The notes below the pieces were generated by a model, which ran no database searches, was not told the origin of the DNA, and saw only the letters and a program-made list of their open reading frames with translations. A stretch of 64,000 nt of DNA from Alphaproteobacteria bacterium. Lineage in GTDB: Bacteria; Pseudomonadota; Alphaproteobacteria; UBA828. Shown one piece after another: positions 3,791 through 26,081 of the stretch (position 1 is the first letter of the stretch; every line of letters begins with the position of its first letter). The position numbers were made by a program, and so were the translations under genes. The stretch spans positions 491,891 to 555,890 of the forward strand of contig OZ241738.1 in the NCBI GenBank assembly GCA_965200925.1, written 5' to 3'.

Positions 3791-3897
3791 GGGAACCTCC
3801 AATGACCCGCTGCCCTTCTCAGGCCGATTAATTGGGGGATTACATACATAGGTTGACAAGAGGATATCAGCTTCGCTGCAGTTCGCTACCCGTATAA

Positions 3898-3964: not shown

Positions 3965-4092
3965 ACGCTCGAGAGGCCGGTCTACGATGGCCGAGCGCGG
4001 CGGTATGGCGACGATGCCGGCGGATCGTGCGCGGGCGGAAAGCTGACAAGGCCGTCGAGTCATGTCCGCGCTTCCGCGGCGTTCGCCCCTGC

Positions 4093-5220: not shown

Positions 5221-5286
5221 CGCGTTCTCCCGTCGTCGAATGCCCTTCGATATGCGGCGCCGGCGCGGGATTTCAAGGGGTTTCCT

Positions 5287-5312
5287 GTTTGCCGGCAAAC
5301 TTGCCGGCAAAC
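5287..5312. promoter_or_regulatory. Tandem palindromic operator-like site GTTTGCCGGCAAAC-TTGCCGGCAAAC in the divergent region upstream of brxA
   Basis: Perfect 14-bp palindrome followed by a second 10/12-bp copy with 12-bp periodicity. Located between the divergent hypothetical gene start (5220) and brxA start (5481). Confidence 0.4.
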
Positions 5313-5480
5313 ATATGGCCTGTCGTTGACGGAGCACCGGCGCCGTGGTAGCGACCAGCCGCCATGCACGGTCAGGCCGCATGTTCCTTTCGCCTCTCGC
5401 CGGACGCCGAGTCCCGCGCCGGGGCCGAAACGGCCGGCTTCCGCCTTGGGGCCAAAGGCACGCACACCAGCCGCACGATC

Positions 5481-6173: not shown

Positions 6174-6739
6174 CCGTGTCGCGCATCGAGGACCTCGCGG
6201 AAGCCTACGGCCGGCATATTGCGACGCCCTGGCAGCGGACGGTCGCCGGCGCCCAGCGTGTCGTGATGGTCGTCTACGACAAGGAGCAGGAGCGGATGCT
6301 GCGCGCCCGCAGGCTCGCCTTCGAGACCGCGACAAAGCGGGCCGGATACGCTTGGCTGGAGGTCGATCTGGCGCCGGCTTTCGCCGAATGGATGGCCGGC
6401 GACGAATACCGGGAGGCGTATTTCGCGACGCCCGAGGATCTGCGGCTGAAGCTCGACGCCGCGTTCCCGGACCATGTGGCCGGCCGCATCCGCGAGCGGC
6501 TGACTTCGGCGGACGCCACGGAGGCTTCCGTCGTCGCGGTCTTCGGCGCGGGCGCGCTCTTCGGCCTCGCGCGGGTCTCGCGAATCCTCGGCATGGTCGA
6601 GAGCGATATCCGCGGCCACCTCGTCCTTTTCTTCCCGGGTCAGTACGAACGGAACAACTACCGCTTGCTGGACGCGCGCGACGGCTGGAACTATCTCGCC
6701 GTGCCGATCACGCTGCGTGGCGCGGAGGAGCACGGATGA
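6170..6739 (+). CDS. brxB: BREX protein BrxB (DUF1788-like)
   Basis: ~190 aa. GTG 6170 overlaps the brxA stop (GTGA). Immediately precedes BrxC, whose ATG overlaps its stop (ATGA). Confidence 0.6.
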   Translation: MTVSRIEDLAEAYGRHIATPWQRTVAGAQRVVMVVYDKEQERMLRARRLAFETATKRAGYAWLEVDLAPAFAEWMAGDEYREAYFATPEDLRLKLDAAFPDHVAGRIRERLTSADATEASVVAVFGAGALFGLARVSRILGMVESDIRGHLVLFFPGQYERNNYRLLDARDGWNYLAVPITLRGAEEHG

Positions 6740-9700
6740 AGATCAAGGACGTCCTCCAGCGCGATCCTGCGGCGCACCCCCTCGTCAACAAGGGCCAGGC
6801 CCGGATCGCCGACCGCGAGGACGCGCAGGTGATGCGGGAGCTGCACGGCGAGCTCGCGACCTTCGTCTGCGAGGGCCAATATGCGGACGGCATCCAGAGG
6901 ATCGTCCGTTCGTTCCTCGACGATCTGGGCCGGACCAGCCAGCGCGGCGCCTGGGTCAGCGGCTTCTTCGGCAGCGGCAAGTCGCACCTCCTGAAGATGC
7001 TCTGCCACCTGTGGCGCAACACCGAATTCCCCGACGGGGCGACGGCGCGCAGCCTGGTTCCCGCGATCCCCGAAGATCTGGCCGCGCTGCTGCGCGAGCT
7101 CGACGTCGCCGCCCGGCGCGCCGGCGGCCTCATGGCCGCGGCCGGTTCGCTGCCCAGCGGCAGCACCGACCACGTGCGCCTCACCATCCTCGGGCTGCTG
7201 CTGCGCGCCGCCGGCCTGCCGGCGCAGTACCCCCAGGCCCGGTTCTGCCTGTGGCTGCACGCCGAGGGGCGCTTCGACGCCGTGAAATCCGCGGTCGAAG
7301 CGGAGGGCCGGCGCTTCGAGCGGGAGCTCAATGACCTCTATGTGAGCGGCGCGATCGCCCGCGCCGTCCTCGCCTGTGCCCCGTCCTTCGCGGCCGGCGA
7401 AGCCGAGGCCAGGCAAGCGATCAGGGCGCAATTCCCGCCCCAGGCCGCCGACATCGCGACGGCGGAGTTCCTGCGCACGGCCAAGGACGCCCTGGCGCAT
7501 GCTTCCGATAGTGAGGGCCGGGTGCCGTGCACACTCGTCGTGCTCGACGAAGTGCAGCAATATATCGGCGATTCGACCGAGCGTTCCATGCTCGTCACCG
7601 AAGTCGCGGAAGCCGTCGAAAAGCAGCTCGATAGCCACGTGATGATCGTCGGCGCGGGCCAGAGCGCGTTGACCGACGCGCCGCTCCTCCAGAAGCTGAT
7701 GGACCGCTTCACGATCCGCGTCCCGCTCTCCGACGCCGACGTGGAGACGGTCACCCGCAAGGTGCTGCTCCAGAAGAAACCCAGCGCCGTCGCCGCTCTG
7801 CGCGCGCTGCTCGAAAGGCACGGCGGCGAGATCTCGCGGCAACTCCAGGGGACCCGGCTGGGCGAGACCGCTGCGGACCGCGTGGCCCTTGCGGACGACT
7901 ACCCGCTGCTGCCGGTCCGCCGGCGTTTCTGGGACGCCTGCTTCCGCCAGATCGACGCGGCCGGCACCCACAGCCAGTTGCGTTCGCAGCTGCGCATCGT
8001 CCACGACGCCCTGGCCAGACTCTCCGACCGGCCGCTCGGCGCGGTCGTCGCCGGCGACGAACTGTTCGATGCGCTCGCGCCCGAGATGGTCAACACCGGC
8101 GTGCTGCTGCGGGAGATCAACGAACGGATCATCGAGGTCGGCGAGGCCGAAGGCGCGCTCGCGCGCCGCCTCTGCGGGCTGATCTTCCTGATCGGCAGGC
8201 TGGCGCGGGAGGCGGGAGCGGATACCGGCGTCCGGGCGACCGCAGACCACCTCGCCGATCTGGTCATCGACGATCTCGCCGCCGACAACGGCAAGCTCCG
8301 CAGCGCGGTCGAAACGACGCTCGGCAAGCTCGCCGGCAACGGCATCCTGATGCGGGTGGGCGAGGAATACCGCCTTCAGACCCGCCAGGGCGCCGAATGG
8401 GATCGGGAGTTCCGCAATCGGCAGACCCGCCTGAACAACGATTCCGCCGCGATCCAGCTTCGGCGCGACGCGCTTCTCCACGGAGAGATCGACAGGATCG
8501 TCCGCGGTCTGCGCATGGTCCAGGGGGCGGCGAAGGAACCCCGGCGCTTCGCCGTTCACCGGGGGGCGTCCCCGCCGCCCGCCGCCGACGGTTCCACGAT
8601 CCCGGTCTGGGTCCGCGACGGCTGGGCGGCGTCGGAGAAGGCGGCGGTGGAGGCGGCGCGGGCGGCGGGCGCCGCCGACCCGACGATTCACGTCTTCGTG
8701 CCCCGTCGTTCGGCGGACGATCTGCGCCGCCTGATCGTCGAGGCGGCCGCGGCCGAACAGGCGCTCGACGCGCGCGGCAACCCGACCGAGCCCGAAGGCC
8801 AGGAGGCGCGCCGGAGCATGGAGAGCCGTCGCGCCCGCGCCGAGGCCGGGCGCGACGCTCTGGTCCGCGACGTCGCCGCCAACGCCAAGGTCTTCCAGGG
8901 CGGCGGCAACGAGGTCCTTCTCGCGGCGCTGGAAGACCGCCTCCGGGCCGCCGGCGAGGACGCGCTCGCGCGCCTGTTCCCCCGCTTCAGGGAAGCCGAT
9001 GGCGCGGCGTGGCCGTCCGTCATCAAGCGTGCGCGTGACGGCGCCGACCACCCGCTCCAGCCGGTCGGGCACACGGACGCGGTGGAAAAGCACGCGGTCT
9101 GCCGGCAGGCGCTTGCCGAGATCGGCGTCGGCGCGTCCGGGGCCGCGTTGCGCAAGGCGCTGGCCGGCCCGCCCTTCGGTTGGCCGCGCGACGCCGTGGA
9201 CGCGGCGCTGATCGCGCTGCATCGCGCGCGGCATCTGTCCGCGACGCTGAACGGCGCGGCGCTCCCGCCAGGCGGGCTCGACCAGAACCGCATCGCGAAG
9301 GCGGCGTTCCGCGCCGAGCGCGCGGCCCTCTCGGTTCAGGATCGCTTGGTCCTGCGGAAGCTCTTCCAGGCCGCCGATCTTGCCTGCAAGAGTGGCGAGG
9401 AGGAAGCCCGGGCGAATGATTTCCTGGACACGCTTGCCGAACTCGCCCGTTCGGCCGGCGGTGAACCGCCGCTTCCCGTCCCGCCCGGTACGGTCGACGT
9501 CGAGGACGCGCGCCGGCTGGCCGGGAACGAACGGCTGGCGGCCATCCGCGACAAGGCCGACGAATGGGAAGGGAAGATCGCCGAGTGGCGCGCGGCGGCG
9601 AAGTCGATCGCCGCGCGTCTGCCGGCATGGCGCCTGGTCGAGCGGCTGGCGGCGCATGCCGAAGGGATCGAAGAGGCCGGGCCGCAGCGCCGCGAGGTGG

Positions 9701-10191
9701 CGGCGGTGCGCGACGGGCGGCAATTGCTGGCGGGCGCGGATCCGGCCGCCGCCATCCGCAAGGCGCTGGCGGACCTTCTCCGCGCTTCCGTCCGGGCCGG
9801 GTTCGAGGCCCTTGAGGCCGCCTTCGCCGAGGCCATGCGGACTCTCGACGCGAACGAAGCATGGCGAAAAGCCGCGCCCGCCGACCGCGAGGCGATCCTG
9901 AAAGAGGCGGGGCTGGCCGCACCGGCGAAGCCGGAGGTCGCGACCGACGAAGCCCTGGCCGACTGCCTCGACCGGCGCTCCCTTGCGGGCGTCCGCGCCG
10001 AGATCGACGCCGTCCCGGCACGCGCGGCCCGTGCCGTCGAGCGGGCGGCCCGGCTGCTGGAACCGAAGGTCCGCCCGGTCGCCCTGGAGCGGGCCACCTT
10101 GCGCGACGCCGCCGAGGTCGAGGCGTGGGCCGAGCGCCAGAAGAAGGCGCTGCTCGAAGCCGTCGCCGACGGCCCGGTGCTGGTGAATTGA
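6736..10191 (+). CDS. brxC: BREX P-loop ATPase BrxC/PglY (~1150 aa)
   Basis: MKIKDVLQRDP... N-terminus with Walker A GFFGSGKSHLLKMLCHLW. Large size and position between BrxB and PglX. Confidence 0.85.
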   Translation: MKIKDVLQRDPAAHPLVNKGQARIADREDAQVMRELHGELATFVCEGQYADGIQRIVRSFLDDLGRTSQRGAWVSGFFGSGKSHLLKMLCHLWRNTEFPDGATARSLVPAIPEDLAALLRELDVAARRAGGLMAAAGSLPSGSTDHVRLTILGLLLRAAGLPAQYPQARFCLWLHAEGRFDAVKSAVEAEGRRFERELNDLYVSGAIARAVLACAPSFAAGEAEARQAIRAQFPPQAADIATAEFLRTAKDALAHASDSEGRVPCTLVVLDEVQQYIGDSTERSMLVTEVAEAVEKQLDSHVMIVGAGQSALTDAPLLQKLMDRFTIRVPLSDADVETVTRKVLLQKKPSAVAALRALLERHGGEISRQLQGTRLGETAADRVALADDYPLLPVRRRFWDACFRQIDAAGTHSQLRSQLRIVHDALARLSDRPLGAVVAGDELFDALAPEMVNTGVLLREINERIIEVGEAEGALARRLCGLIFLIGRLAREAGADTGVRATADHLADLVIDDLAADNGKLRSAVETTLGKLAGNGILMRVGEEYRLQTRQGAEWDREFRNRQTRLNNDSAAIQLRRDALLHGEIDRIVRGLRMVQGAAKEPRRFAVHRGASPPPAADGSTIPVWVRDGWAASEKAAVEAARAAGAADPTIHVFVPRRSADDLRRLIVEAAAAEQALDARGNPTEPEGQEARRSMESRRARAEAGRDALVRDVAANAKVFQGGGNEVLLAALEDRLRAAGEDALARLFPRFREADGAAWPSVIKRARDGADHPLQPVGHTDAVEKHAVCRQALAEIGVGASGAALRKALAGPPFGWPRDAVDAALIALHRARHLSATLNGAALPPGGLDQNRIAKAAFRAERAALSVQDRLVLRKLFQAADLACKSGEEEARANDFLDTLAELARSAGGEPPLPVPPGTVDVEDARRLAGNERLAAIRDKADEWEGKIAEWRAAAKSIAARLPAWRLVERLAAHAEGIEEAGPQRREVAAVRDGRQLLAGADPAAAIRKALADLLRASVRAGFEALEAAFAEAMRTLDANEAWRKAAPADREAILKEAGLAAPAKPEVATDEALADCLDRRSLAGVRAEIDAVPARAARAVERAARLLEPKVRPVALERATLRDAAEVEAWAERQKKALLEAVADGPVLVN

Positions 10192-10203
10192 GGAGATACC
10201 GCA

Positions 10204-11403: not shown

Positions 11404-12011
11404 GTTCCGTCGAAATCTATATGGAGGGGGGAGGGGATCATCGAAATGGTAAGGAACGTCTTCGTCTCGGTATGGATGCGTTTCTTAGCGAGATGAAGGG
11501 CATGGCCAGGTCCCGGTCGACCCGCTGGAGACTCGTTCTTTGTGGTGGGCGGAACCAGGCATATCGGGCGTTTGTGGAAGCGTGTCGGAGCGACCGGGAC
11601 AGCATCTTCGTGCTGCTGGTCGATTCGGAAGGTCCCGTAAATTCCTCGCCGCGCGCCCATCTGGCCGCGGACGGGTGGGACCTGGACGGAGTGGACGAAG
11701 ACCGGGTTCATCTGATGGTCCAGACGATGGAAACCTGGATCGTCGCCGACCCCGAGGCCCTTGCCGCCTATTACAGGCAGAGCTTTCGAGCGAACGCTCT
11801 CCCGGCGGCGGACGACCTGGAAACGGTCGCCAAGAACGAGGTCGCCAGTGCCCTGGACCGGGCGACCGAGCAGACGCAGAAAGGCCGCTACCACAAGATC
11901 CACCACGCCGCCGACCTCCTCGCGTGCATCGACCCGGCGAAGGCGCGGGCGCGCTGCCGCCATTGCGAGCGCCTGTTCGCCACCCTCGACGCGGCCGTCG
12001 CGGCGGGGTGA
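11400..12011 (+). CDS. Small TOPRIM-like partner protein (DUF4276-like; alternatively DUF4435/AriB-like), module 1
   Basis: ATG 11400 overlaps the ATPase stop (ATGA). ~203 aa. N-terminal EIYMEGGGD (conserved Glu) and LLVDSEG (acidic motif) are consistent with TOPRIM/OLD-nuclease-like small partners of AAA_21 ATPases. Confidence 0.55.
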   Translation: MSSVEIYMEGGGDHRNGKERLRLGMDAFLSEMKGMARSRSTRWRLVLCGGRNQAYRAFVEACRSDRDSIFVLLVDSEGPVNSSPRAHLAADGWDLDGVDEDRVHLMVQTMETWIVADPEALAAYYRQSFRANALPAADDLETVAKNEVASALDRATEQTQKGRYHKIHHAADLLACIDPAKARARCRHCERLFATLDAAVAAG

Positions 12012-12100: not shown

Positions 12101-12132
12101 AGATGAAGTTGGGGGGAGGGGAGGAGAGATGA
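12016..12132 (+). pseudogene. pglX 5' stub (MSALSRESRRALERAVRKARAAAEAGAGK + 9 unrelated codons); insertion scar
   Basis: Translation is identical to the first 28 residues of full-length PglX at 14025. Terminates after KLGGGEER; its stop overlaps the ATPase-2 start (ATGA). Confidence 0.7.
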
Positions 12133-13355
12133 ACATGACCGACGAACAGCTTGCTGGCGTTCCGCGGATCGAGCGTTTGAAGGTGCGGAATTTTCGGGTG
12201 TTGAAAGACGTCGATATAAGGGATTTGACGCCTTTGACGGTGCTGCTTGGACCGAACGGGAGCGGCAAAACCACCTTGTTCGACGTGTTCGCGTTCCTCT
12301 CCGAATCCTTCGAGGACGGCCTGAGGCGCGCCTGGGATCGACGCGGGCGGGCCAGAGAGCTCAAGACCCGTGGCGCCAAAGGCCCGGTCATCGTCGAACT
12401 CAAATACCGCGAGCGACCGGGCACACCGCTTATCACCTATCACCTGGAGGTGGACGAGCATGATGGCGCGCCCAGTGTCGTCCGTGAATGGCTATGGTGG
12501 AAACGGCACAGCTATGGACGCCCGTTTCGTTTTCTCGAATACCGAAATGGCGGAGGCACAGCGATCAGCGGCGAACAACCCGATGTCGAGGAGGATAGAA
12601 TCCCAATTCCTCTCAAGTCTCCCGACCTGCTGGCGGTCAACACGCTTGGGCAGCTCCGGGAGCATCCGCGCGTGGCCGCGCTGCGCGACTTCATTATGAA
12701 CTGGCACGTATCCTACCTTTCCGTGGATGACGCGCGCGGGCATCCGGAAGCGGGCCCCGAGAAGTGGTTGACCAGGACCGGCGATAATCTCGCCAACGTG
12801 ATTCAGTATCTGAAGGAGAATCATCCGAAGCGGTTGAAGAGGATATTCAAATTATTGGGGCGGCGGGTGCCGCATGTCGAGAAGGTTCGCGCTGAAACCA
12901 TGCCGGACGGGCGACTGCTTCTGCAAATCAAGGACGCGCCGTTCGATCATCCGGTTCAGGCGCGCTTCGCTTCCCATGGAACGCTCAAGATGCTGGCCTA
13001 TCTGGTGTTGCTGCATGACCGGAATCCGTCGCCGTTCATCGGTATCGAGGAACCGGAGAATTTCCTGCATCCGAGGCTACTTCCCGAATTGGCGGAAGAA
13101 TGCCGCGCGGCCAGCGCGCGCACGCAACTGCTCGTCACGACGCACTCCCCGTTTTTTCTGAACGCGCTTCGCCCCGAGGAAGTCCGCGTTTTGTGGCGCG
13201 ACGAAACCGGCCACGCGCAGGTCGAGCAGACCTCTGGTCTCGAGGGAGTGGCGGAGTTCATGGATAACGGGGCGCTGCTCGGGCAGCTGTGGGCAGAAGG
13301 GCAGTTCGGCGTCGGCGATCCACTGGTCCGTCGCGGCGGAGGACGCCGCCGATGA
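12129..13355 (+). CDS. ABC-type ATPase (AAA_21-like), module 2, diverged paralogue of the 10204 gene
   Basis: RIERLKVRNFRVLKDVDI...LTVLLGPNGSGKTTLFDVFAFL (Walker A). FIGIEEPENFLHP (Walker B). LVTTHSPFF (H-loop). 408 aa. Confidence 0.75.
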   Translation: MNMTDEQLAGVPRIERLKVRNFRVLKDVDIRDLTPLTVLLGPNGSGKTTLFDVFAFLSESFEDGLRRAWDRRGRARELKTRGAKGPVIVELKYRERPGTPLITYHLEVDEHDGAPSVVREWLWWKRHSYGRPFRFLEYRNGGGTAISGEQPDVEEDRIPIPLKSPDLLAVNTLGQLREHPRVAALRDFIMNWHVSYLSVDDARGHPEAGPEKWLTRTGDNLANVIQYLKENHPKRLKRIFKLLGRRVPHVEKVRAETMPDGRLLLQIKDAPFDHPVQARFASHGTLKMLAYLVLLHDRNPSPFIGIEEPENFLHPRLLPELAEECRAASARTQLLVTTHSPFFLNALRPEEVRVLWRDETGHAQVEQTSGLEGVAEFMDNGALLGQLWAEGQFGVGDPLVRRGGGRRR

Positions 13356-13969
13356 CGTCGGCGCGCCATTTTATATTTCTTGTCGAGGAACCATCCATGG
13401 AGGCGTTTCTCCAGGCGCTCGTTCCACGTATTCTTCCCGATTGCGAGTGCGACATTCGACTGTTTCAGGGGAAACGGGATACGATGAAAAATCTACCGAA
13501 CCGTCTTCGCGCTTATAGCCGCTGGCTGCCCGAAAATTGGCGTATCGTCGTGATGGTCGATCGCGACAACGACGATTGCCGGCTGCTCAAGGCGCAGCTG
13601 GAAAAGGCAGCTGCCGAGTCGCGGCTACGCACGCGCGCGCAATCCGGCGGCGCTTGTTGGCAGGTCGTCAACCGCATCGTGATCGAAGAACTGGAGGCTT
13701 GGTATTTCGGAGACTGGGACGCCGTTCGGCGCGCCTACCCAAAGGTTCCCGATACGATTCCGGGGAAAGCTAAATACCGGAACCCGGACGAGATACACGG
13801 CGGAACGTGGGAAGCATTCGAGCGTGTCCTTCAGAAGCACGGGTATTTCAAGGGTGGGCTACGCAAGATCGAGGCCGCGTGCGCCATCGCCCCGCACGTC
13901 GATCCAGGGCGCAACCGGTCGCCGAGTTTCGCGGCGTTTCGCGATGCACTCGTCGAGGCGGCTGCCTGA
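13352..13969 (+). CDS. Small TOPRIM-like partner protein (DUF4276-like), module 2
   Basis: ATG 13352 overlaps the ATPase-2 stop. ~205 aa. FIFLVEEPSMEAF (conserved Glu) and VMVDRDNDD (DxD) are typical of TOPRIM. Confidence 0.55.
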   Translation: MTSARHFIFLVEEPSMEAFLQALVPRILPDCECDIRLFQGKRDTMKNLPNRLRAYSRWLPENWRIVVMVDRDNDDCRLLKAQLEKAAAESRLRTRAQSGGACWQVVNRIVIEELEAWYFGDWDAVRRAYPKVPDTIPGKAKYRNPDEIHGGTWEAFERVLQKHGYFKGGLRKIEAACAIAPHVDPGRNRSPSFAAFRDALVEAAA

Positions 13970-14119: not shown

Positions 14120-17100
14120 AAGCCTCGCGGTCGGCCGCCGCGAACCTTGGGAGTCGATGACGCCGGACGGCCGCGCGCTGCGCAACCGGCTGCGCGCCCA
14201 CGGGCGGCATCTCGGCGACCGGCGCGACCCCCGGAGCGGCACACAGGCGAGCGGCCGGCTGATGCGGGAATGCGCCTACGAGCACTGGCACCGGATGCTG
14301 TTCGCCCGCTTCCTCGCCGAGGCCGGCCTGCTGATCGAGCCGGAAACCGGCGTCGCCGTCACCCTCGCCGAGGCGAAGGAGCTCGCCCGCGCCACCGGCG
14401 ACCGACCACTGGCCACCGGCGACCGACCACTGGCCACCGGCGACCGACCACTGGCCACCGGCGACCGACCACTGGCCACCGGCGACCGACCACTGGCCAC
14501 CGGCGACCGACCACTGGCCACCGGCGACCGACCACTGGCCACCGGCGACCGATCACTGGCCACCGGCGACCGACCACACGACTGGCTGGCGCTGGCCGGC
14601 GCCTGGGCCGGGCGGATGCTGCCGCAGATCTTCCGCGCCGGCGACCCGGTTCTCGACGTCGCCTTGCCGCCGGAAACGCGGGCCGACCTCGAAGCGCTGC
14701 TGGAGGGGCTGCCGCGCGCGACCTTCCTCGCCGACGACAGCCTCGGCTGGGTCTACCAATTCTGGCAGGCGGACAGGAAGGAGGCGGTCAACCGCTCCGG
14801 CGTCAAGATCGGCGCCGACGAGCTCCCGGCCGTCACCCAGCTCTTCACCGAGGATTACATGGTCCTGTTCCTGCTCCACAACACGCTGGGCGCGTGGTGG
14901 GCGGGCAAGGTGCTGGCGGCGCGCCCCGGCCTCGCGCAATCGGCCGGAAGCGAGGAGGAACTGCGCGAAGCCTGCAAGGTCGGCGCCGTGGAGTGGCGCT
15001 ATCTGCGCTTCGTCCGCGCGGAGGGGGAAGATGGCGCACCCGGCCCGTGGCGCCCGGCGGCGGGCGCGTATCCCGGCTGGCCGCGCGCGGCGAAGGACGT
15101 GACGCTGTGCGACCCGTGCATGGGTTCGGGGCATTTCCTGGTCTTCGCCCTGCCGATCCTCGCCGCGTTGCGCATGGCGGAGGAGGGGCTTTCGCGGGAG
15201 GCGGCGACGGACGCCGTGTTGCGCGACAACCTCTTCGGCCTGGAGATCGACCCGCGCTGCACGCAGATCGCCGCCTTCACCCTCGCCTTCGCCGCGTGGC
15301 GCATGGCGGGATACCGCTCGCTGCCGGCGCTGAACCTCGCCTGTTCCGGCCGCGCCGTCGGCGCGTCGAAGGCGGAATGGCGGCGGCTGGCGGAGAGGGC
15401 CGCCGCGGCCGCCGACCCGGCCGCCGCCCGCGACCCGCTCGGCGCGGAGGAGACCTTGCGCGCGGCCGGCGTCGAAGAGCGCGTGAAGAACGGGCTCGAG
15501 GCGCTGCACGAATTGTTCGCCCAGGCGCCGGCGCTCGGCAGCCTGATCGACCCGCGCCGGGTGAGCGGCGACATCCTGACCGCGGATTTCGAGGCGCTGG
15601 AGTCGTTGCTGGGCGTGGTTCTCAAGGCGGCGGAGAACGACAGTGAGACCGCGGAGATGGCCGTCGCCGCGCAGGGCATGGCGAAGGCGGCGGAACTCCT
15701 GGGGCGGCGCTTCACGCTGGTGGTGACGAACGTGCCCTTCCTCGGGCGCGGCAAGCAGGACAGGGTGTTGCAGGACCATCTGGCGGTGCATTTCGACGAC
15801 GCGAAGCGCGATCTCGCCACCGCCATGCTTCGCCGCCTGCTGGGCTTCGCGGATACGGGCGGGGTGGTCGCCGCCGTTACGTCGCAGAATTGGCTGTTCC
15901 TGAAGTCCTACGCGAAGCTGCGCAAGCGCGTGTTGCGGGAAACGACATTGAACGTCGTCGCCGCGCTCGGGCCACGCGCGTTCGAGACCATCAGCGGCGA
16001 GGTCGTGAATACCGCCCTGGTAACACTCACCGCCACCTCGCCGCCAAGCGATGCGGCCTTTGCTAGCCTGGACACCAACGACGGTGCGGATGCGGCCGCG
16101 AAAGCGCGGGCGCTGTCGCAGGGGGAGCTATCGCTGCCGGCGCAGGCGGCGCAGAACGCGAATCCGGTTTCTAACCCTGATCTTGTTATTGGATATGAAA
16201 GCAAAGAAGGAACTCAAACCCTTGATAGCGTAAGTTATTGCTATCAGGGCTTGGCGACCAGCGATAATTCCCAATTTGTTATCAACTTTTGGGAACTTGC
16301 AAGGATTTCTGGTGGCTGGGAACCATTCCAAATGACATCCGATGGGACATCAACCTTGAGCGGATGCTCTTGGATAATCCATTGGGAGAACGGCGAAGGT
16401 CGTTATGCACGACATGCGAAGGCTCTAAAAAAGGCAGGAAGGCTTGGAGGATGGAAATCAGGCCATGAGGCTTGGGGGAAGGTTGGCGTCGCAGTCAACA
16501 GAATGAAAGATCTTCCATGTTCTCCATATTTCGGTACAATGTTCGATTGTAATGTTGCTGTTATTATACCTGACGATCCTGAAGATTTCTCGTGGATTTG
16601 GGCACAGGTTCGGACTTCTGAGTATTCAAAAGAGGTTCGTCGACTGAACCGGAATGTTAGTGTGGCCAATCTGACGTTGATCAGGGTGCCGATTGATGAA
16701 AAAATTCGTAGAGCCGATTCATTTCCTAACTTGAGCGCAGCGCAGTGCCCCAACCCGACGCAATGGCTGTTCGACGGACACCCCGCCCGCGCGGACGCAC
16801 CGCTGCAGGTCGCCGCCGCCCGCCTGTGCGGCTATCGCTGGCCACGCCAGACCGGCTCCAGCTTCATGGATTGCCCAACCGTCGGCCCCGACGGGCTCGA
16901 GCGCCACGCGGACGCCGACGGCATCGTCTGCCTCGCCGCCATCGCCGGCGAGGCCCCGGCGCACGAACGGCTGGCCGCGCTGCTCACCGACGCCTTCGGC
17001 CCCGATTGGTCGGCGGCCCGGTTCGCCGGCCTGCTCGCCGAGGCGGGCTTCGCCGGCAAGAGCCTCGACGACTGGCTCCGCGACGGCTTCTTCGCCCAGC

Positions 17101-17735
17101 ACTGCAAGCTGTTCCGCCACCGCCCCTTCGTCTGGCACGTCTGGGACGGCCGCCGCGACGGCTTCCACGCGCTGGTCAACTGCCACCGCCTCGCCGCGCC
17201 CGGCGGCGAAGGCCGGCGCACGCTGGAGAAGCTGATCTGGTCCTGTCTCGGCGCCTGGATCGACCGCCAGCGGGCCGAACGGGACGCGGAAACCGAAGGC
17301 GCCGACGCCCGCCTCGCCCACGCCGAACACCTGCGCGCCGAACTCGTCAAGGTCCTCGAAGGCACGCCGCCCTACGACCTCTTCGCCCGCTGGAAGCCGC
17401 TCCACGAACAACCCCTCGGCTGGGAGCCGGACGCGAACGACGGCGTGCGCGTCAACATCCGCCCCTTCATGACCGCCCGCCCCCTCGCCGCCAGGGCAAG
17501 GAACGCTTGCATCCTGCGCACGACGCCCAACATCCACTGGCGCAAGGACCGCGGCAAGGAGCCCCGGCGGGAGAAGGCCGACCACCCCTGGTTCTGGAGC
17601 CGCAACCCGGACGACCCTGCCCACGAAGTCGATTTCCCCGGTGGCGCGGATTTCGACGGCAACCGCTGGAACGATCTGCACTACACTCGCGCCGCCAAAG
17701 AAGCCGCGCGGGCGGCGGAAGGAGAAGGCCGATGA
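14025..17735 (+). CDS. pglX: BREX adenine-specific DNA methyltransferase PglX (~1236 aa)
   Basis: N6-adenine MTase motifs DPCMGSGHFLVFA and VVTNVPFLG. Size and position. ATG 14025 chosen inside ORF 13824..17735. Confidence 0.85.
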   Translation: MSALSRESRRALERAVRKARAAAEAGAGKALESLAVGRREPWESMTPDGRALRNRLRAHGRHLGDRRDPRSGTQASGRLMRECAYEHWHRMLFARFLAEAGLLIEPETGVAVTLAEAKELARATGDRPLATGDRPLATGDRPLATGDRPLATGDRPLATGDRPLATGDRPLATGDRSLATGDRPHDWLALAGAWAGRMLPQIFRAGDPVLDVALPPETRADLEALLEGLPRATFLADDSLGWVYQFWQADRKEAVNRSGVKIGADELPAVTQLFTEDYMVLFLLHNTLGAWWAGKVLAARPGLAQSAGSEEELREACKVGAVEWRYLRFVRAEGEDGAPGPWRPAAGAYPGWPRAAKDVTLCDPCMGSGHFLVFALPILAALRMAEEGLSREAATDAVLRDNLFGLEIDPRCTQIAAFTLAFAAWRMAGYRSLPALNLACSGRAVGASKAEWRRLAERAAAAADPAAARDPLGAEETLRAAGVEERVKNGLEALHELFAQAPALGSLIDPRRVSGDILTADFEALESLLGVVLKAAENDSETAEMAVAAQGMAKAAELLGRRFTLVVTNVPFLGRGKQDRVLQDHLAVHFDDAKRDLATAMLRRLLGFADTGGVVAAVTSQNWLFLKSYAKLRKRVLRETTLNVVAALGPRAFETISGEVVNTALVTLTATSPPSDAAFASLDTNDGADAAAKARALSQGELSLPAQAAQNANPVSNPDLVIGYESKEGTQTLDSVSYCYQGLATSDNSQFVINFWELARISGGWEPFQMTSDGTSTLSGCSWIIHWENGEGRYARHAKALKKAGRLGGWKSGHEAWGKVGVAVNRMKDLPCSPYFGTMFDCNVAVIIPDDPEDFSWIWAQVRTSEYSKEVRRLNRNVSVANLTLIRVPIDEKIRRADSFPNLSAAQCPNPTQWLFDGHPARADAPLQVAAARLCGYRWPRQTGSSFMDCPTVGPDGLERHADADGIVCLAAIAGEAPAHERLAALLTDAFGPDWSAARFAGLLAEAGFAGKSLDDWLRDGFFAQHCKLFRHRPFVWHVWDGRRDGFHALVNCHRLAAPGGEGRRTLEKLIWSCLGAWIDRQRAERDAETEGADARLAHAEHLRAELVKVLEGTPPYDLFARWKPLHEQPLGWEPDANDGVRVNIRPFMTARPLAARARNACILRTTPNIHWRKDRGKEPRREKADHPWFWSRNPDDPAHEVDFPGGADFDGNRWNDLHYTRAAKEAARAAEGEGR
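14391..14577 (+). repeat. In-frame 21-bp tandem repeat (gccaccggcgaccgaccactg, ~8.9 copies) encoding (ATGDRPL)n within pglX
   Basis: Eight perfect or near-perfect copies from 14391 (copy 8 carries a C>T giving P>S) plus a partial ninth. Translation ATGDRPL x7, ATGDRSL, ATGDRPHDW. Confidence 0.9.
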
Positions 17736-20494: not shown

Positions 20495-20503
20495 GGCGCG
20501 GCG

Positions 20504-21706
20504 ATGGAATGGGCGAACGTACTGCGACGCATAGAAGCGGGCGAAGACCGAACCACCGAGTTCAAGCGGGAGCTCGGAAACGACCTGTCCGCCGTCGGCA
20601 AGGCGATTTGCGCGTTCGCGAACGGTGAAGGCGGCTTGATCGTCCTTGGAATCGACGACGCGGGATCCATCATCGGGCTGAACGCAGATCCGCACAAGGT
20701 GCATGAGCGATTGACCGATTTCCTGCAAACCGGATGCAGCGCGCCGGTCGGGGCGCGCTATGGACGGCACGAGGTCGCGAACGGCTGGGTCCACTGGATC
20801 GAGGCGCCCCGCATCCGGGGACCGGAACCGCTTCGCTACCGCGGGCGCACCTACATTCGCCGCGAACGAAGCAGCGTGGAGCCCTCTCCCCACGAGCTTC
20901 AGGAATTGTTCAACGCCTTCGGCTTTGTCTTAACCGAAGAACAGGCGATTCTGGCGGCGAGTGTCGAAGACATCGATATCAAGTCGTTCCGGTCGTTCCT
21001 GCGCAGACGGGGGCTCGAAACGGAGGAAGAGCCGCAACCCTCGATCGAGGACGATCTGCGCAATGCCCGCGTTCTGCGCGACGTCGACGGAACGCTTCGC
21101 CCCACTCTCTACGGGCTGATGGTCTTCGGCCGGGATCCCCAGGCGCATCCGCACACCGGAAGCTTCTGGATCCAATGCACCGCCTATGCGGGCCGCGACC
21201 GGGCGTCGGACGTCATCCTGGTCGGGGAGGGCAAGGGGCACCTCGACGAACAGGTGCGCCGGGCGCTCGGCTGGCTGAAGAGCCTGGGGTGGACCGAATC
21301 CTATCCCGGCATCCTTCGCGAGGATCGCCCGCTGATCCCCGAACCCGCGGTTCGCGAAGCGCTGGTGAACGCCGTCGCCCACCGCGACTACGCGCTCATC
21401 GGCTCGCCCGTGCAGCTCGAAGTGTTCCGCGACCGGGCCGCCGTCACCAGCCCCGGCACGCTCCCCAACCACATGACGGTCGAAAACGTCCGGTTCGGCG
21501 GTCTCCCACGCTCCCGCAACGAGTGGATGGCGAACGCCATGGTCGTGGCGCGCCTGATGGAAAAGCGGGGGCTCGGTTGGCTCAGGATGCGCCGCGAAAT
21601 GCAGGCGTTCAACGGCACCGAACCGGAACTGGTCAACGACGAAGGCGGCAAATTCGTCCGCGTGACCTTCCGCCTGAAGCCGGAACCCGCCGGGGAAAAA
21701 GCGTGA
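20504..21706 (+). CDS. AlbA_2/Schlafen-like divergent-AAA ATP-binding protein with C-terminal HATPase_c_4-like region (putative nucleic-acid-binding)
   Basis: N-terminus ...EDRTTEFKRELGND...AICAFANGEGGLIVLGIDDAGSIIGL is typical of the AlbA_2 (Schlafen group) domain. 400 aa. The PglZ GTG start overlaps its stop. Confidence 0.5.
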   Translation: MEWANVLRRIEAGEDRTTEFKRELGNDLSAVGKAICAFANGEGGLIVLGIDDAGSIIGLNADPHKVHERLTDFLQTGCSAPVGARYGRHEVANGWVHWIEAPRIRGPEPLRYRGRTYIRRERSSVEPSPHELQELFNAFGFVLTEEQAILAASVEDIDIKSFRSFLRRRGLETEEEPQPSIEDDLRNARVLRDVDGTLRPTLYGLMVFGRDPQAHPHTGSFWIQCTAYAGRDRASDVILVGEGKGHLDEQVRRALGWLKSLGWTESYPGILREDRPLIPEPAVREALVNAVAHRDYALIGSPVQLEVFRDRAAVTSPGTLPNHMTVENVRFGGLPRSRNEWMANAMVVARLMEKRGLGWLRMRREMQAFNGTEPELVNDEGGKFVRVTFRLKPEPAGEKA

Positions 21707-24030
21707 CGACCGCCACCCTGATCGACGCGATCCGCGAGTCGATGGCCGCGAGCCTGCACGGGCCGGACGGCGCGGAACCGCCCGCCGCCCTGCTCTGGAC
21801 CGACCCGGACGGCCAGTGGCGGCCGCTGATCCCCGCGCTCATGAAGGCGCTGCCAGAACTCTACGCCCTCGGCGCCTACGCGCCCGCGGAACGGCGCGGA
21901 CCGGTCATCTGGCTCAAATGCGTCGTCGAACGGACCCTGCCCGACGCGGCGCCGGAAGTGGGCGCGACGCCGGTCCTCTACCTGCCCGAGGTGGGGCGCC
22001 AGACGCTGCGGGCCGCCGACGATTGCGACGCCACGCTCCAGCCGCTGGTCGAGCTGCAATATCGCGGCGCCGTCTGGCATCAGCGCAACGGCCGCGACTG
22101 GACGGTCGAGGCGTTCCTCGCTTCCGACGACGCGCTCGGGCTCGACGTGGCGCGCGACGCGGCGACCCGCGCCGCCGCGTTGCGCGCCCTGCCCTTGCTG
22201 GCGGCGGAGCCGGTCGCGACGCTGCGCGGCCGCCGGCTCGAGGCGGAGGATTTCGACCGCCTGTCGATCGGCGATCCGATCCGCGATCTGTTGACCTGGA
22301 TGAGCGACGCCGCGGCGTTCGAGGCGGACTGCGACCCGGACCGCTGGGCGGCGTTTCGCGACGTCTGCGCGCGCGAATTCGCGTTCGACCCGGAGACGGA
22401 CGGCCTCCGCGCCGCCGCGGACACGCTGGCCGCGGGCGGCGGCAAGTGGAACGAGGCTTGGCGGCGTTTCTGCGATGTGCCGCTGCTTTACCCCGGTATT
22501 CCCGCCGTTCTGCGCACGGCGCGGCCCAAGGACCTGTTGCACCCGGTCGAACCGTCCCGCCGGCCGGGCCTGAACGAGGAGCGGGAAGACCGGCTTCGCG
22601 CGGCGCTGGAAGCGGCCGCCGGGCTTCCCCACGCCGACGCCTGCGACAGGGTCGCGGCGCTGGACGACGAACACAGGGAACGCCGCGGCTGGGTGTGGGC
22701 ACAGCTCGGCGAGAGCCCCTGCGCGTTGGCGCTGGAGCCGCTCGGCCGCCTCGCCCGCGCGGCGAAGCGCGAGGCGGAGGCCGCCTCGGCCGAAGCGCTG
22801 GCCGCGGACTACGCCACGCAAGGGTGGCGCTGCGACCGGGCGGCGATCGAGGCGCTGGCCTGCCCCAAACCCGGCGCCGGACACGGTCTCGTCACCAGCG
22901 TCGTGCGGGCGCTGTACGAACCGTGGCTCGACCGCGCGGCGCGGCGCTTCCAGAGCCTGCTTTCCGCCGGGCATCCCGATCCGGGCGCGTTGACGAGCGG
23001 CGTCGACGCCGAACCCGGGGTCTGCATCCTCTTCGCCGACGGGCTGCGCTTCGATCTCGGGGCCATGCTGGGCGAGCGGCTGGAGGCGCGCGGCGTCCGG
23101 GTGCGGCTCGGGCATCGCATGGCGCCGATCCCGACCGTGACCGCCACTGCGAAGCCGCTGGCTTCCCCCGCCCATGCGGCCTGTGCCGGCGCGGCGAGCG
23201 CGGAGGATTTCTGCCCCGCGGTTGCCGGCGCCGGCAAGCCGGCGACCGCCGCGCGGCTTCGCGCCCTCATGGTGCGGCAGGGCATCGCGATTCCGGAGGC
23301 CGGCGAAATACCCATGGCGCTCGACGGCGGCGCCGGCGCCTGGATGGAAACGGGAAAGATCGACACGCTCGGCCATTCCCTGGACGCCGCACTCGCCCGC
23401 CAGATCGACGCGGAGATCGACGCCATCGCCGACCGTGTCGATGCGCTTCTCGCGGCCGGCTGGCGCAAGGTCCGGGTCGTGACCGATCACGGCTGGTTGC
23501 TGCTTGCGGGCGGATTGCCGCGGGTCGATCTGCCGCCGTCGTTGGTCGAAACCAAATGGTCCCGCTGCGCCGCCGTTCGAGGCGAGTCGGAACCCGTCGT
23601 TCCCACCTACCCGTGGCACTGGGACCCGTCGCTGCGGATCGCCTCGCCGCCGGGAATCGGCGCCTTCCGTGCCGGCACGGAATACGCCCACGGCGGCGTC
23701 AGTCCCCAGGAATGCGTCGTGCCCGATTTGCTCGCGGAGCGCGACGCGGCCGTCGCCGCCGCGCGGATAACGAGCGTGGTCTGGCGTGGGATGCGCTGCC
23801 GGATCGCCGTCGAGACCGGCGCGCCGGGGGCGAAAGTCGACCTGCGGCTCAACCGCAGGCAGGCCGAATCCAGCATCGCCGCCGCGGTCCGGGCGCTGAA
23901 CGATGCCGGCGAGGCGAGCCTCGTCGTTCCCGACGACGAGCACGAAGGCGCCGCGGCCCTGGTCGTGGTTCTGGACGAAGCGGGGCGGGTGCTCGACGAC
24001 CGCCCGACCACCGTCGGCGACGGAGGGTGA
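21703..24030 (+). CDS. pglZ: BREX alkaline-phosphatase-superfamily protein PglZ (~775 aa)
   Basis: N-terminus LIDAIRESMAASLHGPDG...LLWTDPDGQW. PglZ-domain motif VVTDHGWLLL. Position before brxL. Start GTG 21703 (alternative ATG 21742). Confidence 0.85.
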   Translation: MTTATLIDAIRESMAASLHGPDGAEPPAALLWTDPDGQWRPLIPALMKALPELYALGAYAPAERRGPVIWLKCVVERTLPDAAPEVGATPVLYLPEVGRQTLRAADDCDATLQPLVELQYRGAVWHQRNGRDWTVEAFLASDDALGLDVARDAATRAAALRALPLLAAEPVATLRGRRLEAEDFDRLSIGDPIRDLLTWMSDAAAFEADCDPDRWAAFRDVCAREFAFDPETDGLRAAADTLAAGGGKWNEAWRRFCDVPLLYPGIPAVLRTARPKDLLHPVEPSRRPGLNEEREDRLRAALEAAAGLPHADACDRVAALDDEHRERRGWVWAQLGESPCALALEPLGRLARAAKREAEAASAEALAADYATQGWRCDRAAIEALACPKPGAGHGLVTSVVRALYEPWLDRAARRFQSLLSAGHPDPGALTSGVDAEPGVCILFADGLRFDLGAMLGERLEARGVRVRLGHRMAPIPTVTATAKPLASPAHAACAGAASAEDFCPAVAGAGKPATAARLRALMVRQGIAIPEAGEIPMALDGGAGAWMETGKIDTLGHSLDAALARQIDAEIDAIADRVDALLAAGWRKVRVVTDHGWLLLAGGLPRVDLPPSLVETKWSRCAAVRGESEPVVPTYPWHWDPSLRIASPPGIGAFRAGTEYAHGGVSPQECVVPDLLAERDAAVAAARITSVVWRGMRCRIAVETGAPGAKVDLRLNRRQAESSIAAAVRALNDAGEASLVVPDDEHEGAAALVVVLDEAGRVLDDRPTTVGDGG

Positions 24031-24032: not shown

Positions 24033-26081
24033 ATGGAACTCGACCGTCTGGACGAACTGGCCGCCGCCGCCTTCGATGGCTACCTGGTGCGCAAGGATCT
24101 GGTCCGCAGATACGCGCGCCAGTACCCGGTGCCGACCTACGTCGTCGAATTCCTCCTCGGGCGCTACTGCGCGAGCGTCGACGAGGCGGAGATCGAAGAA
24201 GGGCTGCGCATCGTCGAACGGTTGCTGAAGGACCGGACCGTCCGCACCGGCGACGAGGAGCTGTTCAAGGCGCGGGCGCGGGAGAACGGGTCGATCCGCC
24301 TCATCGATCTGGTCAAGGCGCGGCTGGACGCGCGCAACGATTGCTATGTCGCCGAACTGCCCAGCCTGAATCTGCGCCACGTCCGCATCGACGACGAACT
24401 CGTCGGCGACAACGAGCGCATGCTGACCGACGGCTTCTATGCCGAGGTCACGCTCGGCTACGACGGCGTCATCGCTCAGGAGAAGGATGGGCGGCCTTTC
24501 AAGGCGGAGGCACTGCGGCCGATCCAGATGTCGAAGCCGGATGTGCTCGACGTCTACGCCGGCGCGCGGCGCGGGTTCGCGACCGGCGAGTGGATCGATT
24601 TCCTGCTGCGCTCCGTCGGCCTGGAGCCGGCGGCGTTCGACGAGCGCGCGAAGCGGGTGGCGCTGCTGCGCATGGTCCCGTTCGTGGAGCGGAACTACAA
24701 TCTGGTGGAGCTCGGGCCGCGCGGGACCGGCAAGAGCCATCTCTTCCAGCAGATATCGCCCTACGCGCATCTGGTTTCCGGCGGCAAGGCGACCGTCGCC
24801 AAGATGTTCGTCAACAACGCCAACGGCCAGCGCGGCCTGGTCTGCCGCTACGACGTGGTCTGCTTCGACGAGGTCGCCGGCATCTCCTTCGACCAGAAGG
24901 ACGGCGTCGGCATCATGAAGGGCTACATGGCCTCGGGCCAGTTCAGCCGCGGCAAGGAGAACATCCGTGCCGACGGCAGCTTGGTGATGGTCGGCAACCT
25001 GGATGCCGACATCGAGCAGCAGCAGCGGATCGGCCATCTGTTGCGCCCGCTACCGCCCGAGATGCGGGACGACACCGCGTTCATGGACCGCCTGCATGCG
25101 TTCGCGCCGGGCTGGGACTACCCGAAGCTCGCGCCGGGTGCGCATCTGACCGACCATTTCGGCCTCGTCAGCGATTTCCTCAGCGAGTGCTGGAGCCGGC
25201 TGCGCAGCGGCAACCGCGTCTCTGCGATGCAGAGCCGGGTGCATCTGGGCGGCGCGTTGAGCGGGCGCGACATCGAGGCGGTCAACAAGACCGTCGGCGG
25301 CCTCATCAAGCTGCTGTTCCCGGACCCGGACATGCCGGTCGCCGACGACGATCTCGAATGGACCGTGCGGCTGGCCCTGGAAGCGCGCCGCCGCGTCAAG
25401 GAACAGCAGAAGCGCGTCTTCAAGAGCGAGTTCCGCAACACCCATTTCAGCTACATCCTGGGTACGGAGGGCGTCGAGCGGTTCGTGGCGACGCCGGAGC
25501 TGCACAGCGACGAGGCGATCGACAGCGACCCGTTGCCGCCGGGGCAGGTCTGGGGCGTCGGCGCCGGGTCGGGCGGCGCCGGGGCCGGCCTCTACCGCAT
25601 CGACGTCACCTGCGGTCCGGGCGGCGGCGTGCGCATCCTGAACCAGCCGACTCCGCCCGCGTTCCGAGAGAGCGTGCGGGTGGGCGAACAGAACCTGTAT
25701 GCGCGGGCAAAGCAGCTGGTCGGCGACCGCAACCCGCGCGAGGACGAGTTCACGGTCCAGATGCGTCCCATGGACGCCACCATGTCGGGCGAGGGGCTGG
25801 GGGTGCCGGTGCTGGTCGCCCTCTGCGGGGCCCTGCTCGGCCGCAACACCCGCGGCGGCGCCATCGTCGCCGGGGCGCTCAATCTCGGCGGCTCGATCGA
25901 GCCGGTCCCGAACGCGGCGCGGGTCGCGGAGCTCGCCGTCGACAAGCAGGCCCAGACGCTGCTGATGCCCGTCTCCGCGCGCCGGCAGCTCGACGACTTG
26001 CCCGACGATCTGTGGACCAGGATCAACATCGAGTTCTACAAGGACGGCCCCGACGGCGTATTCAAGGCGCTGATGGAGTGA
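24033..26081 (+). CDS. brxL: BREX Lon-like protease BrxL (~682 aa)
   Basis: MELDRLDELAAAAFDGYLVRKDLVRRYARQYPVPTYVVEFLLGRYC N-terminus. AAA+ Walker A GPRGTGKSHLFQQISPYA. Lon-like C-terminus. Last gene of the operon. Confidence 0.85.
   Translation: MELDRLDELAAAAFDGYLVRKDLVRRYARQYPVPTYVVEFLLGRYCASVDEAEIEEGLRIVERLLKDRTVRTGDEELFKARARENGSIRLIDLVKARLDARNDCYVAELPSLNLRHVRIDDELVGDNERMLTDGFYAEVTLGYDGVIAQEKDGRPFKAEALRPIQMSKPDVLDVYAGARRGFATGEWIDFLLRSVGLEPAAFDERAKRVALLRMVPFVERNYNLVELGPRGTGKSHLFQQISPYAHLVSGGKATVAKMFVNNANGQRGLVCRYDVVCFDEVAGISFDQKDGVGIMKGYMASGQFSRGKENIRADGSLVMVGNLDADIEQQQRIGHLLRPLPPEMRDDTAFMDRLHAFAPGWDYPKLAPGAHLTDHFGLVSDFLSECWSRLRSGNRVSAMQSRVHLGGALSGRDIEAVNKTVGGLIKLLFPDPDMPVADDDLEWTVRLALEARRRVKEQQKRVFKSEFRNTHFSYILGTEGVERFVATPELHSDEAIDSDPLPPGQVWGVGAGSGGAGAGLYRIDVTCGPGGGVRILNQPTPPAFRESVRVGEQNLYARAKQLVGDRNPREDEFTVQMRPMDATMSGEGLGVPVLVALCGALLGRNTRGGAIVAGALNLGGSIEPVPNAARVAELAVDKQAQTLLMPVSARRQLDDLPDDLWTRINIEFYKDGPDGVFKALME

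Follow-up and report, generated by a model that had tools for sequence, protein, structure and literature searches.

The gene investigated here lies in a 64,000-nucleotide stretch of an alphaproteobacterial genome (GenBank assembly GCA_965200925.1, contig OZ241738.1, positions 491,891 to 555,890 of the forward strand), hereafter called the window, and encodes what its sequence identifies as a minimal “Schlatpase” (also named pSlfn-HisKinase), i.e., a Schlafen-type RNase domain combined with a GHKL ATP-binding domain, with neither a fused sensor nor a domain of the helix-turn-helix (HTH) type. We consider it probable (roughly 0.7) that this gene is the downstream member of a mobile two-gene cassette, formed together with a TrlF-like gene for a PHP-nuclease/ABC-ATPase, which has been inserted into a type 1 bacteriophage exclusion (BREX) operon between pglX and pglZ. 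An original prediction made from the nucleotide sequence alone had offered two roles for the gene. The first, partner of the upstream PHP-ATPase in a nested two-gene system, is borne out by comparison with other genomes, as the TrlF-like gene is its sole conserved neighbor, stands always directly upstream on the same strand and has diverged together with it. The second, a regulator or sensor recruited into BREX, is not supported in the form proposed, given the location of most pairs outside BREX, the occurrence of one lineage in both restriction-modification (RM) and BREX operons, and the lack of an HTH.

Two Pfam domains and conserved homologs that carry both of them establish the open reading frame (ORF) as a genuine gene under conservation, as opposed to one that arose by chance in sequence of 69% G+C. 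More than 2100 relatives of the Schlatpase were found in a large protein collection; the statistics on identity, length and motifs reported here cover the 120 homologs listed of these, which are 63–99% identical to the query, measure about 390–450 residues and all contain both domains. The Pfam check agrees with the domains named in the original prediction: the N-terminal AlbA_2/Schlafen domain matches PF04326 over model positions 1–115 of 118 (E 1.9e-19, 70.8 bits, cut-off 25.3), and residues 300–389 match HATPase_c_4, PF13749 (E 1e-19, 70.7 bits, cut-off 26). The label “divergent AAA ATP-binding” that had been attached to the protein was right as to ATP binding but not as to AAA, which is an old Pfam name of AlbA_2, the ATP fold being that of GHKL proteins.

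Within the Schlafen domain, the nuclease motif E14-DRTT-E19-F-K21 (Ex4ExK, nucleotides 20543–20566) is intact and D51 and D52 are conserved; the canonical motif is kept in 111 of the 120 homologs. For prokaryotic Schlafens in general the catalytic motif is Ex4(E/D)xK (PMC13056530). An AlphaFold2 model of the Schlatpase, computed from an alignment of database sequences only, reached a mean predicted local distance difference test score (pLDDT) of 77.5. Compared by Foldseek with the solved structures in the PDB, the model resembles most closely 3lmm, i.e., the COG2865 protein DIP2311 (E 6e-18; E 5e-12 by hmmsearch), and it also resembles the nuclease (N-)domains of SLFN13, 11, 14, 12 and 5 (E 1e-4 to 1e-3, probability 1.00), while the sequence profile of the Schlatpase family reaches the catalytic lobe of SLFN14/13/5 with E ~1e-6. 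The matches in Entotheonella/Tectimicrobiota genomes (L045–L051, positions 10001–10430) cover only Schlatpase residues 1–138, hence the Schlafen domain alone, at 62–65% identity; they lie in a conserved syntenic neighborhood, and the gene there has either another domain architecture or a truncation that has been conserved.

The GHKL domain has its N-box residues E285-x3-N289 within REALVNAVAHRDY (nucleotides 21353–21391), a form of the motif (ExxxNAxxHRDY) that is kept in 116 of the homologs, and the lid/G-box reads RSRN...RGLGW, with RGxGW present in all 120. In the model, this part matches the catalytic and ATP-binding (CA) domains of histidine kinases and the ATP-binding domain of pyruvate dehydrogenase kinase (PDK), and the PADLOC prokaryotic Argonaute (pAgo) model PDLC02394 aligns over the joint SLFN-GHKL part of the protein. 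The residues of RzAgo equivalent to E285 and N289, E314 and N318, bind Mg-ATP (bioRxiv 10.64898/2026.05.29.728809). The chain terminates about 10 residues beyond the GHKL domain, at residue 400, and the GHKL fold takes in its structure up to the final elements. Neither an HTH nor a winged HTH (wHTH) was found in the sequence, the Pfam matches or the AlphaFold model, so the protein does not have the form of a classical COG2865-type regulator.

The gene directly upstream encodes a PHP domain joined to an ATPase and is distantly related to Ppl, an anti-phage protein. The original prediction had recognized it as a PHP-ATPase, and a full-length TrlF match, the PHP fold in its structural model and conserved Walker motifs corroborate this. 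The NCBIfam model for TrlF family AAA-like ATPases (NF045780) aligns from end to end (residues 17–919 with model positions 2–944 of 944) at 338.1 bits, against a cut-off of 350, whereas the model Ppl_antiphage (NF042955) gives 135.4 bits, far under its cut-off of 1000, and the PADLOC Ppl model gives a partial match (E 2.4e-31). Pfam detects only the two halves of an ABC/SMC-type ATPase in this protein, and its PHP model matched none of 14 TrlF-like proteins. The AlphaFold model of residues 1–345 (pLDDT 85.3) nonetheless resembles TM0559, EndoQ and the PHP domains of PolC/Pol III (E 1e-8 to 1e-4), and in the family alignments the residues H26, H28, H77, H131, H200, H258 and D261 vary little or not at all. 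Also conserved are the motifs of the ATPase, namely Walker A (G361–S368), an SGG signature (S803–G805), Walker B (D827–D831) and the H-loop residue H860. Profile matches to Rad50, AriA and coiled-coil proteins indicate a Rad50-like coiled-coil insertion between the ATPase halves; those to AriA are weak and confined to the ABC C-lobe. Ppl is described in a 2026 review (PMC12904381) as a single-gene, nucleoside triphosphate (NTP)-inhibited 3'-5' exonuclease on single-stranded DNA that senses DNA 3' ends; a search of the literature for TrlF or the TrlF family returned nothing relevant. A protein search with the PHP domain (P0121–P0235) yielded only fragments of 190–600 residues, where about 920 were expected, and these entered the alignment and were left out of the counts. 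In public assemblies, many genes of the TrlF-like type are thus broken up, be it that they are pseudogenes or that long-read metagenome-assembled genomes (MAGs) contain frameshift errors.

The association of the two genes was followed from both sides, and in each case the co-occurrence that the original prediction had proposed as a check was found. A scan anchored on the Schlatpase, with one genome per GTDB species, gave 52 loci, mostly from MAGs, in the Latescibacterota, Acidobacteriota, Dehalococcoidia, Alpha- and Gammaproteobacteria, Opitutales, Acidimicrobiia, Chromatiaceae and Entotheonella. Among the 36 that could be evaluated, i.e., those with a full-length gene and enough upstream DNA, an intact TrlF-like gene lies directly upstream on the same strand in 18, and remnants of one in two more. 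A metagenome scan anchored on the TrlF-like gene gave 40 loci, and in 15 of the 22 with the 3' end of the gene and downstream DNA a Schlatpase follows immediately. The spacer in homologous pairs mostly measures 6–13 nucleotides, with a few at 23–41. An all-against-all comparison of flanking ORFs returned the TrlF-like gene as the only conserved neighbor of the family. An alternative conserved partner upstream of Schlatpases without a TrlF-like gene was considered and rejected, the neighbors there being housekeeping genes (topA, tyrS, hflX and genes for a hydantoinase and an amidohydrolase).

The two proteins have also diverged together. For 30 loci that have both genes, the pairwise distance matrices of the two proteins are strongly correlated (Mantel r = 0.937), and none of 2000 permutations reached this value. 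In a neighbor-joining tree of the Schlatpases, paired genes stand at the base and throughout, and the solo genes fall into a single clade dominated by Latescibacterota and a scatter of tips elsewhere; this placement, together with remnants of a TrlF-like gene upstream in L007, L026, L035 and L039, indicates that solo Schlatpases arose through loss of the partner. Fusion of the two genes was rejected, as the candidates L071, which adjoins a pglZ fragment, and L085 are deletion remnants. One alphaproteobacterial MAG (OZ251539.1; L001 and L018) carries both a solo Schlatpase, 76% identical to that of the window, and a full pair, the latter flanked by a HEC-01A-like ATPase and by what is left of pglZ and brxL as decayed fragments.

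More distant pairs show the cassette in other settings. When the 40 plasmid matches ranking highest for the Schlatpase were inspected, 33 had a gene annotated “TrlF family AAA-like ATPase” that overlaps the start of an “RNA-binding domain-containing protein”, and in one further match the TrlF gene is annotated “histidinol-phosphatase”. On plasmids of Pseudomonas avellanae and the syringae group and of Yersinia ruckeri the TrlF-Schlatpase pair stands alone, and on a Citrobacter IncC plasmid it lies within a type I RM operon in the order hsdM-hsdS-TrlF-Slfn-hsdR (Slfn denoting the Schlafen gene). The Escherichia coli IncC plasmid pNDM102337 (L103, 1411–12181; pair at 4377–8164) has hsdR-TrlF-Slfn-hsdS-AAA-hsdM, with overlapping genes, in a Tn7-like element adjoining TnsD. 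Of 5426 complete E. coli genomes, 38 contain this version of the DNA, always inside a type I RM operon, and in most of them the identical DNA is chromosomal. The Vibrio parahaemolyticus plasmid pLH80-1, by contrast, repeats the arrangement of the window, pglX-TrlF-Slfn-pglZ-brxL. Since the proteins of the Citrobacter pair, in RM, and of the Vibrio pair, in BREX, share 57% and 64% identity (against about 24% and 26% with those of the window), one lineage of the cassette moves between RM and BREX operons. A marine-sediment contig (L055) bears two tandem pairs (2149–6160 and 6796–10819), about 27–28% identical and each preceded by pglX or a fragment of it. At least three deep lineages, at about 23–28% identity to one another, share the gene order: the window family, the second L055 pair and the gammaproteobacterial (enterobacterial, Vibrio and Pseudomonas) pairs. 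In four distant sequences that were checked (second L055 pair, Citrobacter, Vibrio), every motif is intact, and the Citrobacter and Vibrio pairs retain those of both Schlafen and GHKL domains. A Klebsiella grimontii plasmid (L096, 2870–7640) has a TrlF gene with no Schlatpase immediately behind brxL and beside IS26, a further case of TrlF associated with remnants of BREX.

In the window, the operon runs brxB, brxC, two cassettes of an AAA_21 ATPase and a DUF4276 protein, pglX, the TrlF-like and Schlatpase genes, pglZ and brxL (Table 1). From pglX to brxL it is a single tightly packed, translationally coupled operon, and the overlap of stop and start codons implies that the pair is expressed with BREX. 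The gene was said to follow the PHP-ATPase closely, at 10 bp; the close succession stands, and the gap itself is one nucleotide shorter (Table 1). The claim that its stop codon overlaps the start of pglZ proved correct. The Shine-Dalgarno sequence of the Schlatpase gene, GAGG, lies 7 nucleotides upstream of its ATG and overlaps the stop codon of the TrlF-like gene. At the other end, the alignment to the PADLOC PglZ model begins at nucleotide 21712, in the frame of the GTG at 21703, and independent gene calls give an identical 4-nucleotide overlap of Schlatpase and pglZ in the close relative L100.

Table 1. Features of the type 1 BREX operon and of the nested TrlF-like/Schlatpase pair, in window coordinates
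Feature	Position	Strand	Evidence or remark
brxB	~6100-6739		just upstream of brxC; Pfam BrxB
brxC	6736..10191	+	PADLOC BrxC, 1392 bits
pglX (BREX type 1 methyltransferase)	14202..17735 (start approximate)	+	PADLOC PglX, 1376 bits
ATGA overlap of pglX stop (TGA 17733-17735) and TrlF-like start (ATG 17732-17734)	17732..17735	+	GGAAGGAGAAGG ribosome-binding site upstream
TrlF-like partner gene, 920 aa	17732..20494	+	N-terminal PHP domain; ABC (Rad50/SMC-like) ATPase interrupted by a coiled coil
Spacer between TrlF-like stop (20494) and Schlatpase ATG	20495..20503	+	9 nt
Schlatpase gene (Schlafen RNase domain and GHKL ATPase)	20504..21706	+	ATG to TGA, 400 aa
Schlafen/AlbA_2 domain (aa 14-125)	20543..20878	+	Pfam SLFN_AlbA_2 PF04326
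GHKL (Bergerat-fold) ATP-binding domain (aa ~280-390)	21341..21673	+	Pfam HATPase_c_4 PF13749, fold matches
GTGA overlap of Schlatpase stop (TGA 21704-21706) and pglZ start (GTG 21703)	21703..21706	+	sequence
pglZ (BREX type 1)	21703..24030	+	PADLOC PglZ, E 5.8e-271
brxL	24033..26081	+	Pfam BrxL_N, BrxL_ATPase; PADLOC BrxL, E 7.9e-285

Three two-gene cassettes are thus nested in this BREX operon. Their G+C content at third codon positions (GC3) is 0.75 and 0.80 for the TrlF-like and Schlatpase genes and 0.70–0.72 for the ATPases of the two other cassettes, lower than in the BREX genes (0.81–0.92), which fits a later insertion of the cassettes into the operon. The two tandem ATPase-DUF4276 cassettes between brxC and pglX span 10204–11403 plus ~11400–12011 and 12129–13355 plus ~13380–13969, and their AAA_21 ATPases match HEC-01A in PADLOC (E ~1e-154). 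Inside pglX, the G+C content falls to 0.57 at 16001–17000, as compared to 0.72–0.74 in the part of the gene at 14–16 kb, and this stretch may be an exchanged target-recognition region.

Among the closest Schlatpase relatives (83–84% identity), L100 has the same BREX arrangement and L101 and L102 have decayed versions of it. Among the metagenome loci, the full series from pglX through the pair to pglZ and brxL also occurs in L060, pglX lies directly upstream of the pair in L053, L054 and L055, and in L058 brxC and pglX precede the TrlF-like gene, after which the contig ends. BREX genes adjoin one of the 52 Schlatpase-anchored genome loci, as fragments only, and seven of the 40 TrlF-anchored ones. 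The pglX-pglZ junction of BREX is hence a recurrent and preferred landing site of the cassette and not a requirement for it. Ankyrin-repeat proteins are encoded beside two of the closest relatives (L101, 14895–16571; L102, 7960–9441). Together with the taxa to which related MAGs belong (Latescibacterota, Entotheonella, Dehalococcoidia), they may point to a sponge-associated source community.

Several known systems resemble one or the other gene. Prokaryotic Schlafens are anti-phage tRNases, and Slfn-HisKinase is their commonest architecture, with 34% of the proteins, yet pSlfn-HisKinase genes expressed in E. coli gave no defense against the panel of phages employed there (Perez Taboada et al., PMC13056530). 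In a 2026 preprint (bioRxiv 10.64898/2026.05.29.728809), the unit of SLFN and PF13749 was named the “Schlatpase” supradomain, and the module of the SLFN-pAgo protein RzAgo was found to bind ATP, to tetramerize into an active cleft and to cleave tRNA, with nuclease and ATPase both needed for defense. With these two studies, the recurrence of Schlafen-like domains in antiviral proteins, on which the original prediction had remarked, is experimentally established. The window protein shares with the RzAgo and pSlfn classes the same two Pfam domains in the same order, the same motifs and the defense contexts; it differs in having no pAgo, NACHT, Ig-like, DUF262 or C-terminal HTH domain and in having a partner conserved in the operon, on which those papers are silent. 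Its best match among solved structures, DIP2311 of Corynebacterium diphtheriae, is longer, with 583 residues in the PDB record. We take the extra C-terminal part of that protein to be a wHTH.

A 2026 comparative study (PMC12839542) reported that genes for a Schlafen domain and a minimal histidine kinase (HK) domain, with or without a wHTH, are closely linked to the core loci of BREX and related systems in at least 1017 taxa, and it took them for RNase effectors with a back-up role. The window gene likewise encodes a Schlafen plus minimal HK-like protein in a BREX core locus, but it lacks the wHTH, and its family is linked more strongly to the TrlF-like gene than to BREX; PMC12839542 never mentions PHP or Ppl and describes no partner ATPase where it treats the Schlafen genes. 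The TrlF-like partner, in turn, has in common with Ppl (Gao_Ppl, pplA) and TrlF the PHP domain, the ABC-type ATPase with its coiled-coil insertion and, for TrlF, an end-to-end alignment, but it falls far under the Ppl cut-off and just under that for TrlF, and it is accompanied by a Schlafen gene, while descriptions of Ppl have it acting as a system of one gene. The closest parallel in organization is PARIS (AriA/AriB), which is embedded in a BREX operon/island of Salmonella (PMC11341690) and is also a two-gene system in which an ABC-ATPase precedes a tRNA-cleaving effector, predicted as such in our case; this likeness suggests a second-line or anti-anti-restriction logic. In PARIS, AriA, an OLD-type ABC ATPase, acts as the sensor that controls AriB, the executing Toprim tRNase. 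The resemblance is in logic only: the effector in the window is a Schlafen plus GHKL protein instead of a Toprim protein, and the ATPase belongs to a different clade and has a PHP nuclease of its own.

What is already known is thus the Schlatpase/pSlfn-HisKinase kind of protein and its presence in BREX, and the conserved TrlF-like/Schlatpase cassette looks undescribed. We found no description of the pairing in the searchable literature, although the ABC ATPase classification of Krishnan et al. 2020 might mention the linkage, and the PADLOC library that we used dates from 2023. The cassette is a candidate two-gene system and not a categorically new mechanism.

In the mechanism that we propose, the TrlF-like protein would supply in trans the sensing function that the bare Schlatpase lacks, as the latter has no sensor domain. 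It might be triggered by phage DNA ends, by the state of the nucleotide pool or, possibly, by inhibition of the surrounding methylation-based system; it may degrade DNA itself, and it would then release or license the Schlatpase. By analogy with relatives that have been studied, ATP binding would drive the Schlatpase into dimers or tetramers with an active Schlafen cleft, so that its GHKL domain would serve as an oligomerization switch for the nuclease, and cleavage of tRNA would halt translation as an abortive or second-line defense. The same analogies would make the Schlatpase an ATP-gated tRNase and the TrlF-like protein a nucleotide-regulated, DNA-sensing nuclease. Nesting in BREX and RM operons would ensure co-expression and may link firing to failure of the first-line system. 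A stricter version strikes us as possible and rather doubtful. In it, the two genes would form a previously unnamed, obligately two-component anti-phage system whose TrlF-like sensor gates the Schlafen tRNase; the system would be specialized to ride in methylation-based operons (BREX between pglX and pglZ, type I RM between hsdR/hsdS) and would fire once anti-restriction proteins of a phage have disabled the host system. If it were true, it would explain why stand-alone Schlafen-HisKinase genes showed no defense, a result that is compatible with a missing partner provided that the constructs contained no neighboring genes.

A number of observations count against a functional cassette. A TrlF-like gene is missing from 16 of the 36 evaluable Schlatpase loci and a Schlatpase from seven of the 22 evaluable TrlF-like loci, among them L073, where the TrlF-like gene is followed by pglZ and then brxL. 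Solo TrlF genes are also found on the E. coli plasmids pSYM5/6 and on plasmids of Acetobacter, Xanthomonas and Bacillus. As both genes also occur alone, the partnership is not obligate. In some paired homologs, such as a Chromatiaceae clade with ELGR, K21 of the nuclease motif is replaced. The Mantel correlation could stem in part from co-transfer of adjacent genes without functional dependence. E. coli Ppl functions as a single gene, and the nucleotide control of the two proteins may even be opposite, Ppl being relieved by NTP depletion and the Schlatpase assembled by ATP, which makes their coupling not obvious. Finally, the RNase activity, its ATP dependence, the contact between the two proteins and the anti-phage phenotype are all things that we infer.

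Part of this evidence is what speaks for the main rival explanation, by which the cassette is no functional unit and two independent single-gene systems, a Ppl-like exonuclease and a Schlafen nuclease, home to the same defense hot spots without being coupled. Each gene is indeed solo in a sizeable fraction of the loci, Ppl works as a single gene and some pSlfn proteins defend as single genes (PMC13056530), and the two other cassettes nested in the BREX operon of the window show that insertions are tolerated there. Yet three lineages of only about 25% identity, and many phyla, retain the same gene order on one strand with a gap of just a few nucleotides or with codons that overlap, the proteins co-diverge (r = 0.94), the pair shifts as a unit among stand-alone, type I RM and BREX contexts, and the minimal Schlatpase carries no sensor domain of its own. 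Because such conservation of order and spacing, together with co-divergence, is unusual for mere neighbors in a defense island, we regard two uncoupled systems as unlikely.

It is more improbable still that the Schlatpase is an accessory component of BREX, i.e., a regulator, sensor or back-up effector acting through BREX proteins. Its translational coupling to pglZ would agree with this, as would the recurrence of the pglX-pair-pglZ order in L060, L100 and pLH80-1 and of the pglX-side junction in L053–L055, and the back-up effector role assigned to the BREX-linked Schlafen-HK(-wHTH) genes of at least 1017 taxa (PMC12839542) points in the same direction. Most homologous loci, however, have no BREX genes, with a single case, in fragments, among the 52 genome loci, and the same cassette lineage also resides in type I RM operons or stands alone. 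A canonical type 1 BREX system (brxA-brxB-brxC-pglX-pglZ-brxL), moreover, works without the pair. That the protein is a COG2865-type transcriptional regulator controlling the operon we hardly credit: many AlbA_2-HATPase_c_4 proteins do have a C-terminal wHTH and are annotated as regulators, and GenBank labels homologs of the window protein as “transcriptional regulator” and “putative DNA binding domain-containing protein” (H61, H65), but this chain ends about 10 residues after the GHKL domain with no HTH, its nuclease motif is conserved, and its gene lies inside the operon and neither upstream of it nor divergent from it.

Schlafen plus GHKL is the most common architecture of prokaryotic Schlafens; one study puts it at 34% of pSlfn proteins, another at 59% of the proteins with an SLFN domain, and its bare form gave no defense against the phages tried in PMC13056530. 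A co-evolving partner akin to the DNA-end- and NTP-sensing Ppl provides a concrete hypothesis for how the Schlatpase may be controlled. The cassette is not confined to uncultured bacteria of the sponge type, as it also occurs on IncC NDM plasmids, on plasmids of Pseudomonas syringae, Yersinia ruckeri and Vibrio parahaemolyticus and in 38 E. coli genomes; with the cassette present in E. coli, the hypothesis is therefore directly testable in this organism. After PARIS, it would be a second example of an ABC-ATPase plus RNase cassette nested in BREX and RM operons, and as such it bears on layered or “guard” immunity.

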